64,000 nt of DNA from Escherichia coli (lineage in GTDB: Bacteria; Pseudomonadota; Gammaproteobacteria; Enterobacterales; Enterobacteriaceae). The translations under genes were made by a program, and so were the position numbers. Below, piece after piece: positions 826-60,588 of the stretch (its first letter is position 1; the number at the start of each line of letters is the position of its first letter). The notes under the pieces were generated by a model. The model made no database searches, had not been told where the DNA came from, and worked only from the letters and a program-made list of their open reading frames with translations. The DNA is taken from NCBI RefSeq assembly GCF_050920415.1, contig NZ_CP169309.1; one strand, written 5' to 3'.

Positions 826-1108
826 GTAGGCAGGATAAGGCGTTTACGCCGCATCAGGCATTCGGAGCACAATGCCTGATGCGATGCTTGCGCATCTTAT
901 CAGGCCTACAAACGTGACGCGTCCGTAGGCAGGATAAGGCGTTCACGCCGCATCCGGCATTCGGAGCACAATGCCTGATGCGATGCTTGCGCATCTTATC
1001 AGGCCTACAAACGTGACGCGTCCGTAGGCAGGATAAGGCGTTCACGCCGCATCCGGCATTCGGTGCACGATGCCTGATGCGATGCTTCTATTTGCATCAG
1101 GCATCCAG
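826..1108. repeat. BIME/REP cluster: three tandem ~99-bp units of REP-type palindromes
   Basis: Unit gtaggcaggataaggcgtt(t/c)acgccgcatc(a/c)ggcattcgg...gcctgatgcgatgcttgcgcatcttatcaggcctac begins at 826, 925 and 1024; lies between convergent pbpG and dld. Confidence 0.85.
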
Positions 1109-19269: not shown

Positions 19270-20358
19270 TCACGGCAGGCGGTGGCGAGCTTGATAATAA
19301 GCCTGCCAGTGAGCTTCTTTATGTGTAGCGACACGTTGTTCGAAGTAACGGCGCAGACGTGCGCGATCTTCTTCGTTATCTTTGACGATGGTTCCGGCAA
19401 TACAGTCCACCAGGTCGGCTGGCTCCCCCGCGCGATTCGCTAAAAACCAGGCGCGGACGCCCACAGCGTGGGCCACGTTCACGGCTTCAGCGGTGGACAT
19501 AATCGCTGTCAGTGTATCCATTGACGTTTTCTTTTCGCCGTTGGCACGCAGATCGCGGAAGGTGCGTACCAGTAACTCAAGTACCGCGTCAGGCACTTTA
19601 TGCGGAATACCGCTATGGGCCAACAAACGCGCCGAAGCACTGGCGACCAGTTCCAGCTCCTGAGCAAAATCCATAATCGGAAAGACAGTTTCAAAGTCGA
19701 ATCGGCGTTTTAGTGCCGCGCTCATTTCATTAACGCCGCGATCGCGGGTATTGGCGGTGGCAATAATATTAAAGCCTTCCCGCGCATAGAGCTGACTGGC
19801 TTCACCAGTGAGTTCCGGCACCGTCATAACCCTGTCAGAAAGCATACCTAACAGACAGTCTTGTACTTCCAGTGGTGTACGCGTTATCTCTTCAAAACGG
19901 ACAATTTTGCCGTCGCGCATTCCTTGGTAGAGCGGGGCAGGGACCAGCGCTTCCGTTGACGGACCATGATTAATAAGCAGGGCGTAGTTCCAGCCGTACT
20001 TGATTTGATCTTCGGTGGTAGATGCGCCGCCCTGGATAGTTAACCCAGCATCGCCGCTAATAGCGGTTGCCAGTAATTCAGACAGGAGAGATTTTGCGGT
20101 GCCAGGTTCCCCCACCAACATCAAACCGCGCCCGGTAGCAAGAGTGACTAACATGCGTTCGACAGCGGAGGGACTAATCACGACTTTACGGCTGATATTT
20201 TGCGCGCTATCGCCAAGAATAAAAGAACGGGCCGCAGGCAAACTTAACTGCCAACCGGGCGGGCAAGGTGCGTTATCATTTTGCTTTAATTTTGCCAGTT
20301 CATCGGCGTATAACACAGCGGCAGGCGGACGCTGCAGATGATTATTCTGCGGTGACAT
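19270..20358 (-). CDS. yehL: MoxR-like AAA+ ATPase
   Basis: 362 aa; Walker A GEPGTAKS; first gene of the yehLMPQ operon. Confidence 0.85.
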   Translation of the reverse strand: MSPQNNHLQRPPAAVLYADELAKLKQNDNAPCPPGWQLSLPAARSFILGDSAQNISRKVVISPSAVERMLVTLATGRGLMLVGEPGTAKSLLSELLATAISGDAGLTIQGGASTTEDQIKYGWNYALLINHGPSTEALVPAPLYQGMRDGKIVRFEEITRTPLEVQDCLLGMLSDRVMTVPELTGEASQLYAREGFNIIATANTRDRGVNEMSAALKRRFDFETVFPIMDFAQELELVASASARLLAHSGIPHKVPDAVLELLVRTFRDLRANGEKKTSMDTLTAIMSTAEAVNVAHAVGVRAWFLANRAGEPADLVDCIAGTIVKDNEEDRARLRRYFEQRVATHKEAHWQAYYQARHRLP

Positions 20359-20464
20359 ATATTCATCCCTGAAATGTATTAATCAAATAAACGATATTTT
20401 ACGCGCAATAAATGTTTGGCGCATTAGTTGTTTGAGCGGAAAATATCTGGAAAGCAATCACAGT

Positions 20465-20551
20465 AAATAAAAAAACCTGCTGGTGAGGCAGGTTCTTTTA
20501 TTTACTACTTTCAGGCCTAACACCACGGCCTGTGCAACATCGTGTTCCAAC
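20465..20551 (-). ncRNA. orzO: candidate OrzO-like antitoxin sRNA (type I TA)
   Basis: Minus-strand sigma70-like promoter (TTGCAA-N17-TATAAT, -10 at 20563..20558) and minus-strand intrinsic terminator (stem 20474..20494 followed by a U-run in the RNA); the transcript 5' region is complementary (19 of 20 nt) to the zorO 5' UTR at 20699..20718; ends are predicted, not mapped. Confidence 0.45.
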
Positions 20552-20557
20552 GAACGA

Positions 20558-20608
20558 ATTATAACCATCGGTGGACCCCGTTGCAATTAAGATAATGAGA
20601 TTTATAAT
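20558..20608. promoter_or_regulatory. divergent overlapping sigma70 promoters sharing one palindromic -35 hexamer
   Basis: Plus strand: TTGCAA (20581-20586) N16 TATAAT (20603-20608), predicted TSS near 20615 giving a ~175-nt leader to the zorO ATG; minus strand: the same TTGCAA read in reverse, N17, TATAAT (20563..20558). Confidence 0.5.
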
Positions 20609-20789
20609 CCTGACTGTTGGGACGTTGCGCCGGATCGAACCCATTTCAAGTCCTGGCTACCGGACGGGTGGTGCCGCAGGTAGTGCCCTGATCCGGAGTG
20701 CAACATCGTGGTCCAACATACGTAAACCAGTATCGACAGGCAGTGTAAGGGTAAGATGCTGGTGTTGCGCTCCTTAATAAGGAGAGCGG

Positions 20790-20879
20790 ATGGACACGCT
20801 GACACAAAAGTTAACCGTGCTCATTGCCGTACTGGAGTTATTAGTGGCTCTGTTACGGCTGATTGATTTGTTGAAGTAA
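20790..20879 (+). CDS. zorO: type I toxin, 29-aa hydrophobic peptide (ZorO-like)
   Basis: ATG 20790 preceded by GGAGAG SD; translation MDTLTQKLTVLIAVLELLVALLRLIDLLK; stop TAA 20877-20879; missed by the ORF track because shorter than 60 aa; matches my recollection of ZorO from E. coli O157:H7. Confidence 0.7.
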   Translation: MDTLTQKLTVLIAVLELLVALLRLIDLLK

Positions 20880-21138
20880 CGGGCAAATTGAAACGCATCT
20901 AAGGGGGAATACCGTCTCCCTCTTTAATAAAGCTATACTCGTCATAATTCAAGTTGCATGTGCTGCGACTGCGTGTTATTCGGCCCATCCATGGACCTCA
21001 CCCCTTACGGGGCCGCTGCAAGTAGCGTTCAAATCCGCTCCATGCGGATTTGTCGTTCACCCCAGTCACTTACTTTAGTAAGCTCCTGGGGATTCACTCG
21101 CTTATCGCCTTCCTGCAACTTGAATTATTTAGAGTATA

Positions 21139-21456
21139 TTATTCTATTTCTTGGTTGAATATATTCTGTAGTTCACGATTAAAAATAGCGATTACAGTTT
21201 CAGGTGATTCACCTCGTAATTTTCGCTCATCAATAAATTCATCTCTTATATAAATCAACGCATCATTTATTAGCGGGTCGGCATCATCTCTATCACGTTG
21301 ATGAAATGTTGGACGTAGCCGGAATCGTTCCTGTCGATAGACGGAACCTGTAAATAATTCAGAGCATTTATGGATCTCAAGTCTGAAGGAAAACGGATCT
21401 TCAGGTACAGGGACTTCATAATCATAAGTAGCGACCAGCTCTTTTTGCACGATCAT
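21139..21456 (-). CDS. yehK: small uncharacterized protein, 105 aa
   Basis: ORF 21139..21456, 60 nt downstream of yehI on the same strand; size and position match K-12 yehK. Confidence 0.7.
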   Translation of the reverse strand: MIVQKELVATYDYEVPVPEDPFSFRLEIHKCSELFTGSVYRQERFRLRPTFHQRDRDDADPLINDALIYIRDEFIDERKLRGESPETVIAIFNRELQNIFNQEIE

Positions 21457-43804: not shown

Positions 43805-43940
43805 CGCAACCAAACGACTCGGGGTGCCCTTCTGCGTGAAGGCTGAGAAATACCCGTATCACCTGATCTGGATAATGCCAGCGTAGGGAAGTCACAGACC
43901 ACCAGGTCATTGCTTCTTCACGTTATGGCAGGAGCAAACT
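43805..43940 (+). promoter_or_regulatory. TPP (THI-box) riboswitch in the thiM leader
   Basis: Aptamer ctcggggtgcccttctgcgtgaaggctgagaaatacccgtatcacctgatctggataatgccagcgtagggaag at 43818..43891, with conserved CUGAGA and ACCUGAUCUGGAUAAUGCCAGCG elements; sits directly upstream of the thiM SD and ATG. Confidence 0.9.
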
Positions 43941-51749: not shown

Positions 51750-51885
51750 ACTACCCCGTAGGGCGGATAAGGCGTTCACACCGCATCCGGCAACCTATGC
51801 CTGATGCGACGCTGAAGCGTCTTATCATGCCTACACAGCGCTGCCCCGTAGGCCGGATAAGGCGTTCGCGCCGCATCTGACATAA
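51750..51885. repeat. REP/BIME elements
   Basis: Two copies of the gccggataaggcgttc(a/g)c(a/g)ccgcatc palindrome family between fbaB and gatY. Confidence 0.8.
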
Positions 51886-60417: not shown

Positions 60418-60504
60418 AAAAAATAAGCCCGTGTAAGGGAGATTACACAGGCTAAGGAGGTGGTTCCTGGTACAGCTAGCATTTTATGGGTTATGTTTTT
60501 CAGC
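60418..60504 (-). ncRNA. cyaR: CyaR (RyeE) Hfq-dependent sRNA
   Basis: Reverse complement of 60418..60504 reads gctgaaaaacataacccataaaatgctagctgtaccaggaaccacctccttagcctgtgtaatctcccttacacgggcttatttttt, matching recalled CyaR including its terminator hairpin and U-tail. Confidence 0.85.
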
Positions 60505-60588
60505 GAAACGGATGATAACCTTAATAAATGCAGCTGTATGTGATCGGTTTCTAAGAATTTTCCATCCGGGAAAAATAATCGAAATTAA

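Follow-up and report, generated by a model that had tools for sequence, protein, structure and literature searches.

Results

A zor-orz locus between yehL and yehK

In the 64-kb window, by which we mean the whole stretch of Escherichia coli DNA that was analyzed, 780 bp separate yehL (19270..20358) from yehK (21139..21456), both on the minus strand. This intergenic region contains a short ORF on the plus strand, a divergent small RNA gene on its yehL side and a repetitive element on its yehK side. The coordinates of the toxin-antitoxin features are collected in Table 1. Peptide identity, sRNA family membership, RNA pairing, promoters, geometry and genomic position all identify the locus as one intact copy of zor-orz, a type I toxin-antitoxin family of E. 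coli that is already known.

The zor-orz family was discovered at this same yehL-yehK position in strain EDL933, where it was listed as z3289/z3290 (PMC2887945). In EDL933 northern blots showed both ~85-nt sRNAs, primer extension located the transcription starts, and the two Zor peptides proved toxic or partially toxic (PMC2887945). The yehI/yehK-yehL position is also that of the loci in O157:H7 and in strain MFDS1022581, whose single copy is 100% identical to the window. The first-pass annotation of this DNA had proposed a zor-orz-like locus between yehL and yehK, and the position is as published for EDL933. In none of the 30 records listed does RefSeq annotate a feature at the matching sequence.

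Table 1. Coordinates of the zor-orz locus in the window
Feature	Position	Strand	Remarks
orz antitoxin sRNA gene, OrzP specificity type	20466..20551	-	~83-86 nt; putative 5' end at 20551
orz terminator stem	20474..20494		G+C-rich, A/T-flanked; terminator-like on both strands; U run 3' in the sRNA
sRNA seed, nt 1-20	20532..20551	-	5'-GUUGGAACACGAUGUUGCAC-3'
orz promoter	20586..20558	-	-35 TTGCAA 20586..20581, 17-nt spacer, -10 TATAAT 20563..20558; 10/12 consensus
zor promoter	20581..20608	+	-35 TTGCAA 20581..20586, 16-nt spacer, -10 TATAAT 20603..20608; 10/12 consensus
zor 5' untranslated leader	20616..20789	+	174 nt; start taken over from EDL933, where it was mapped
EAP ("exposed after processing") region	20688..20717	+	+73..+102; ends exactly where the repeat ends
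Antitoxin target	20698..20717	+	GTGCAACATCGTGGTCCAAC; +83..+102; recurs at 20532..20551 with one mismatch
RBS-sequestering hairpin	20770..20784	+	CUCCUU-AAU-AAGGAG; RBS AAGGAG 20779..20784; paired in minimum-energy and centroid folds
zor toxin ORF	20790..20879	+	29 aa, MDTLTQKLTVLIAVLELLVALLRLIDLLK; peptide identical to ZorO
Probable zor mRNA 3' end	20903..20919	+	Hairpin GGGGGAAUACCGUCUCC then CUCUUUAAUA; terminator-like site, predicted fold

Between the zor 3' end and yehK lies an element of about 205 bp (20934..21138) with 25-nt terminal inverted repeats that are 88% complementary. The 3' 18 nt of the ERIC1R primer match it exactly at 21080..21097 and match nowhere else in the window. Going by the primer and consensus sequences, we take this to be a putative ERIC (enterobacterial repetitive intergenic consensus) element. 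The canonical ERIC size is about 127 bp, and the element in the window is longer.

In other strains the neighboring yeh genes frequently carry pseudogene annotations. An internal stop interrupts yehM in an O157:H7 strain (L001, 1..1360), yehL is frameshifted in strain A1_136 (L005, 1..859), and yehK is frameshifted in three strains (L006, L007 and L008). The window has intact ORFs for yehL, yehK and yehI. A PADLOC scan of the flanking proteins YehL, YehK, YehI and YehM matched no defense-system model, and we therefore make no claim that the toxin-antitoxin locus belongs to a defense island.

Promoters and zor leader

By its coordinates, the palindromic TTGCAA at 20581..20586 is the -35 element of both the zor and the orz promoter. 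With one -35 hexamer common to both promoters, binding of RNA polymerase for the toxin and for the antitoxin may be mutually exclusive. The passages of the zor-orz literature available to us contain no discussion of a joint -35 hexamer. The hexamers TTGCAA/TATAAT themselves are conserved in >99% of loci (PMC11264685).

When the zor start is placed at 20616, the leader is 174 nt long, in good agreement with the ~175 nt estimated earlier. The AAGGAG at 20779..20784, five bases 5' of the ATG, then falls at +164..+169, and the EAP region at +73..+102 corresponds to 20688..20717. The same landmarks were reported for EDL933 zorO, with the RBS at +164..+169, the EAP at +73..+102 and a UTR of 174 nt (PMC5397157). 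The window thus carries the features by which members of the family are recognized: TTGCAA/TATAAT promoters for both genes, an AAGGAG RBS at +164..+169 and a 174-nt leader. The EAP region was defined, and a role as ribosome standby site proposed for it, in the work on EDL933 (PMC5397157). Inside it lies a conserved GGAGTG (20695..20700); a GGAGTG/AG motif has been noted in zor leaders (PMC11264685).

Structure probing placed the RBS of EDL933 zorO in a stem (PMC5397157), and the folds predicted for the window sequence do likewise (Table 1). The predicted mRNA fold also pairs nt 1-22 with nt 73-102. According to ViennaRNA, removal of the first 28 nt from the full-length RNA raises the mean unpaired probability of the antitoxin target from 0.35 to 0.44 and that of the SD from 0.19 to 0.27. 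Because the gain in accessibility of the target is small, the thermodynamic prediction supports the exposure model weakly for the window sequence.

Toxin gene

We counted as a Zor peptide any 29-residue hydrophobic peptide that is ZorO or one of its variants, ZorP (T3S) and ZorQ (A20S). The ORF in the window encodes such a peptide, and it is 100% identical to ZorO as printed in PMC6669753. It is also identical to the product of the yehK-proximal ORF (zorO) of the O157:H7 genome L001. The comparison with O157:H7 zorO-orzO, which had been suggested in the first-pass annotation together with the 29-codon ORF itself, hence gives an identical peptide; at the nucleotide level our table of variable sites puts the ORF 1 nt away from EHEC zorO and 5 nt away from EHEC zorP. 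In a published survey, ZorO makes up 72.5% of zor ORFs (PMC11264685). It localizes to the inner membrane, depolarizes the membrane and depletes ATP (PMC6669753, PMC9860968), and a chromosomal single copy gave no growth benefit under aminoglycosides (PMC9860968).

An NCBIfam scan of the 29-aa peptide matched no family. This accords with the missing PGAP annotation and does not count against the gene.

The mRNA probably ends at the hairpin 20903..20919, which is predicted to be a weak terminator. A transcript that starts at 20616 and reaches this hairpin would be ~305 nt long, and the ~270 nt given earlier is too short.

Antitoxin sRNA and its target

On the minus strand, Rfam model RF02083 (OrzO-P) matches 20469..20544 over its full length (model positions 1-76) with 98.9 bits (E=1.2e-16). 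The gathering score of this family is 60 bits, and the match is the only one in the window to exceed it. The minus strand therefore carries the divergent ~85-nt Orz sRNA of RF02083. The model starts 7 nt inside the 5' end at 20551, which we set seven bases past the -10 element. When the same start rule is applied to O157:H7 OrzO, pairing runs through exactly the first 18 nt, as published. Pairing of O157:H7 OrzO from exactly nt 1 supports the assignment of the orz start to 20551.

The predicted sRNA fold (z=-3.9) leaves the 5' seed single-stranded and forms two hairpins, a small one and that of the terminator. The terminator stem scores as terminator-like on both strands and deserves its earlier description as strong and bidirectional. 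Further Rfam matches at the locus were rejected. The scores for Thr and Trp leaders on the minus strand are far under gathering, and a second OrzO-P match on the plus strand (20390..20499, 26.8 bits) is far below threshold; all of these are effects of the palindromic terminator.

Elsewhere in the window, Rfam matches are found for the CyaR/RyeE sRNA (60421..60506, minus strand; RF00112, 100.7 bits), a TPP riboswitch (43810..43906, plus strand; RF00059, 71.5 bits) and three copies of naRNA4, a REP-derived family (829..906, 928..1005 and 51761..51831, plus strand; RF02564, 60-82 bits).

A 20-nt repeat with one mismatch between the zor leader and 20532..20551 had been described before. The repeat is real, but its leader copy lies at 20698..20717, one base to the left of where it had been put. 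Dinucleotide-preserving shuffling of the 64-kb window, repeated 100 times, never produced two repeat matches, even with up to 3 mismatches allowed. The seed pairs with mRNA positions +102..+83 through 6 bp, one A·G mismatch and 13 bp, that is 19 bp in total with a duplex energy of -34 kcal/mol. The target lies 73-92 nt upstream of the ATG; the published distance is "72-92" nt (PMC2887945). For repression of zorO, at least 15 contiguous paired nucleotides, or at least 17 paired nucleotides with one internal mismatch, have been reported to suffice, and an engineered OrzO with 6(1)11 pairing repressed zorO fully (PMC3919570). The pairing in the window, 19 bp with one mismatch, is sufficient under this rule. 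Since 6(1)13 exceeds the published minimum, seed and target are cognate by the published pairing criteria. Together, the RF02083 match, the pairing of seed and target and the divergent promoters bear out the divergent antisense sRNA architecture of zor-orz that the first-pass annotation had proposed.

EHEC orzP/zorP shows the same 6(1)13 pattern, and so do six further P-type units, which come from five of the sampled strains. Every P-type unit for which we computed the pairing (including those of L001, L004-L007 and L010; the second unit of L010 and both units of L011 were left out) has the A·G mismatch at seed position 7 (20545/20711 in the window). Its recurrence across these units suggests that the mismatch is maintained and is not a mutation particular to one strain.

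A P-type pair that encodes the ZorO peptide

O157:H7 (L001) carries two units in tandem where the window has one copy. The orzP/zorP unit (MDSLTQ...) adjoins yehL and the orzO/zorO unit (MDTLTQ...) adjoins yehK. We aligned the window copy with these two units and tabulated the variable sites for 13 units from 10 strains. The left part of the window copy is close to the P unit. Its orz gene shows 2 differences from EHEC orzP versus 21 from EHEC orzO, its promoter and 5' leader show 7 versus 24, and its 20-nt target has no mismatches to EHEC zorP versus 7 to EHEC zorO. The 3' hairpin is O-like, as is the ORF. The V1 specificity region, which in a zorO/orzO subtype is of O type, is of P type here in both seed and target. 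On this comparison, the locus is of the OrzP/zorP specificity type and encodes the ZorO peptide. The earlier name "zorO/orzO-like" is thus right for the peptide and wrong for the specificity region of the sRNA and its target.

This is not a rare chimera of a P antitoxin with a ZorO peptide. We rejected that idea, as four other single-copy strains (L004-L007) and one unit of L010, a two-copy strain, share the combination.

Among known systems, zorP-orzP of EDL933 (z3290/sRNA-2, the yehL-proximal copy) is very close. Its antitoxin differs from that of the window at 2 of 88 nt, and the seed, the 20-nt target and the A·G mismatch at position 7 are identical, while the promoters, the 174-nt leader and the place beside yehL are the same. 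In contrast, its peptide has Ser3 instead of the Thr3 of ZorO, it is followed by a second copy where the window copy directly abuts the ERIC element and yehK, and it is the O copy that the ORF and 3' hairpin of the window resemble. The experimentally characterized zorO-orzO of EDL933 (z3289/sRNA-1) has the same toxin peptide as the window, and its leader length, RBS hairpin, EAP position and 3' flank toward yehK are alike. It differs at 7/20 target positions and at 21 orz positions, and OrzO forms 18 contiguous base pairs, one of them G·U in the O157:H7 strain examined, whereas the window shows 6 bp, a mismatch and 13 bp.

Distribution in E. coli and the K-12 remnant

At least a partial match to 20400..20900 is present in 5,232 of 5,426 complete E. 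coli genomes, and 3,393 of the 5,426 (63%) have a full-length match with at least 80% coverage. About a third of the genomes have a partial match alone, most of them to the left half only. Just 41 records reach 99% identity to the window or more, among them strain MFDS1022581 at 100%. Across thousands of genomes the ORF is conserved, as are its length and peptide. Our counts agree with a published survey, which found one copy in 25%, two copies in 42%, orz only in ~30% and none in 3% (PMC11264685).

K-12 MG1655 has kept orz, both promoters and ~35 nt of the leader. A deletion of ~480 bp runs from about +36 of the leader to the last 19-20 nt of the ERIC element, and with it the target, the ORF and most of the ERIC element are gone. 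What is left at this chromosomal site, orzPmg, is an antitoxin without a toxin, and its orz and both promoters are nearly identical to those in the window. The orphan sRNA OrzPmg is expressed (PMC11264685). The first-pass annotation had stated that K-12 lacks the locus, which is true of the toxin half; orzP, both promoters and the start of the leader are retained. It had also regarded the locus as a strain-variable insertion, and here the polarity is wrong. Given that at least part of the locus is found in nearly all complete genomes, copy-number change and deletion of a widespread locus describe the variation better than insertion does.

Discussion

We are highly confident that a functional single-copy member of the zor-orz family is the best explanation for the locus, with a function that would be carried over from EDL933. 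The published work on that strain is our source for toxicity, for RNase III-dependent repression, for processing and for the role of the EAP region; there, toxicity and rescue by the sRNA were shown for the identical peptide with OrzO. In our proposal, two back-to-back sigma-70 promoters with one palindromic -35 hexamer in common would drive the two genes. The rightward promoter would produce a zor mRNA with a 174-nt leader, whose RBS would be locked in a local hairpin and whose extreme 5' end would pair with +73..+102. With the RBS in a hairpin and the EAP occluded by the 5' end, the full-length mRNA would be poorly translated. Removal of the first 28 nt, as in EDL933, would expose the proposed standby site at +73..+102 and lead to more translation. 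The 29-residue peptide would then insert into the inner membrane, depolarize it, deplete ATP and stop growth, again as described for EDL933. The leftward promoter would produce the ~85-nt Orz sRNA, the first 20 nt of which would pair with the leader at +83..+102. By analogy to EDL933, this pairing would block the standby region and trigger cleavage of the zor mRNA by RNase III.

That the P-type pair of the window strain represses as the O-type pair does is something we infer from the pairing rules. On OrzP, the passages of the zor-orz literature available to us report the failure to repress zorO and contain no report of direct repression of a zor mRNA with a P target.

Two other type I toxin-antitoxin systems of E. 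coli with trans-acting antitoxins, tisB-istR1 and shoB-ohsC, resemble zor-orz in having a divergent sRNA that pairs over a short stretch far upstream of the RBS, and in the logic of an inactive primary transcript, activation by 5' processing and a standby site (PMC5397157, PMC2887945). One difference is that full-length zorO is still translatable, whereas full-length tisB is not (PMC5397157). Moreover, the toxin and sRNA sequences of tisB-istR1 and shoB-ohsC are unrelated to those of zor-orz. We know of no LexA/SOS control of zor.

One could argue that the first impression of a toxin-antitoxin locus is an accident of a repeat-rich region. ORFs of 20-50 codons are numerous between yehL and yehK by the mere chance of reading frames, and an ERIC repeat lies immediately downstream, such that a chance ORF might have come to stand next to an unrelated intergenic repeat. 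We give this almost no credence. The repeat was reproduced by none of the shuffled sequences, the covariance model returns an E-value of 1e-16, and ORF and peptide are conserved across thousands of genomes. The RF02083 match, the identity of the peptide to ZorO and the result of the shuffling refute it. It is a little less far-fetched, if still very improbable, that the locus is a decaying remnant, which has the sequence of zor-orz and has lost expression or toxicity, like the orz-only remnant in K-12. Decay is common at this site, as partial matches in about a third of the genomes and the loss of the toxin half in K-12 attest. In the window, however, both promoters, the seed, the target, the RBS hairpin, the 29-codon ORF and both terminator hairpins are intact and in register.

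The mosaic appearance of the copy raises a different concern. Compared with the two O157:H7 copies, the copy in the window resembles P in its left part (orz, promoters, 5' leader) and O in its right part (1 versus 5 mismatches in the ORF and an O-like hairpin), and OrzP failed to repress zorO in EDL933 (PMC3919570). An unequal crossover between the tandem P and O copies might have left OrzP facing a zorO-type target, and the toxin would be repressed weakly or not at all. The target at 20698..20717 speaks against such a non-cognate pair, since it is P-type and pairs with the resident seed in the native 6(1)13 pattern of P units. With any breakpoint downstream of the target, seed and target stay cognate. 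At the level of the sequence a non-cognate pair is refuted, and we attach next to no probability to it. A functional, cognate single copy remains our preferred reading.

How this single copy arose is a separate question. Either unequal crossover or gene conversion in the near-identical ORF segment could have produced the P(left)/O(right) mosaic. In the case of unequal crossover between tandem P and O copies, the exchange would have taken place in the near-identical distal leader and ORF segment, from 20718 to ~20797. It would have fused orzP and the zorP leader to the ORF and 3' end of zorO and deleted everything between the fused P and O parts. We consider this origin possible, if somewhat doubtful: collapse of two copies, gene conversion and an ancestral single copy are alike compatible with the sampled strains, which cannot tell them apart. 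Seed and target lie on the same side of the segment, and collapse or expansion of copies by such a crossover would consequently always regenerate a cognate pair. If true, this could explain how loci range from 0.5 to 4 copies without the release of unrepressed toxin. The passages of the zor-orz literature available to us, including those of PMC11264685, contain no discussion of recombination or of hybrid zor-orz loci. The mosaic relative to O157:H7 is only a mildly new angle on the locus.

Descriptions of the zor-orz family go back to 2010, and several papers have dissected its regulation, yet RefSeq/PGAP leaves both genes unannotated. Flagging the locus in the window recovers a real annotation gap; it is not new biology and has little import beyond annotation. 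There is a practical point for users of the window strain, which has one zor-orz pair of P specificity that encodes the ZorO peptide. Copies can be named O or P by their peptide or by the specificity of their antitoxin, and the two names can disagree.

Besides O and P, we observed two further seed variants among the sampled strains, GTTGGGGCGCCATGTTGCAT (L008, 976..) and GTTGAGATGCCATGTTGCAC (L010, 2186..). The L008 variant pairs with its own target. Both variants are linked to a peptide identical to ZorO and not to the A20S peptide ZorQ. One of the two may be the published Q type.
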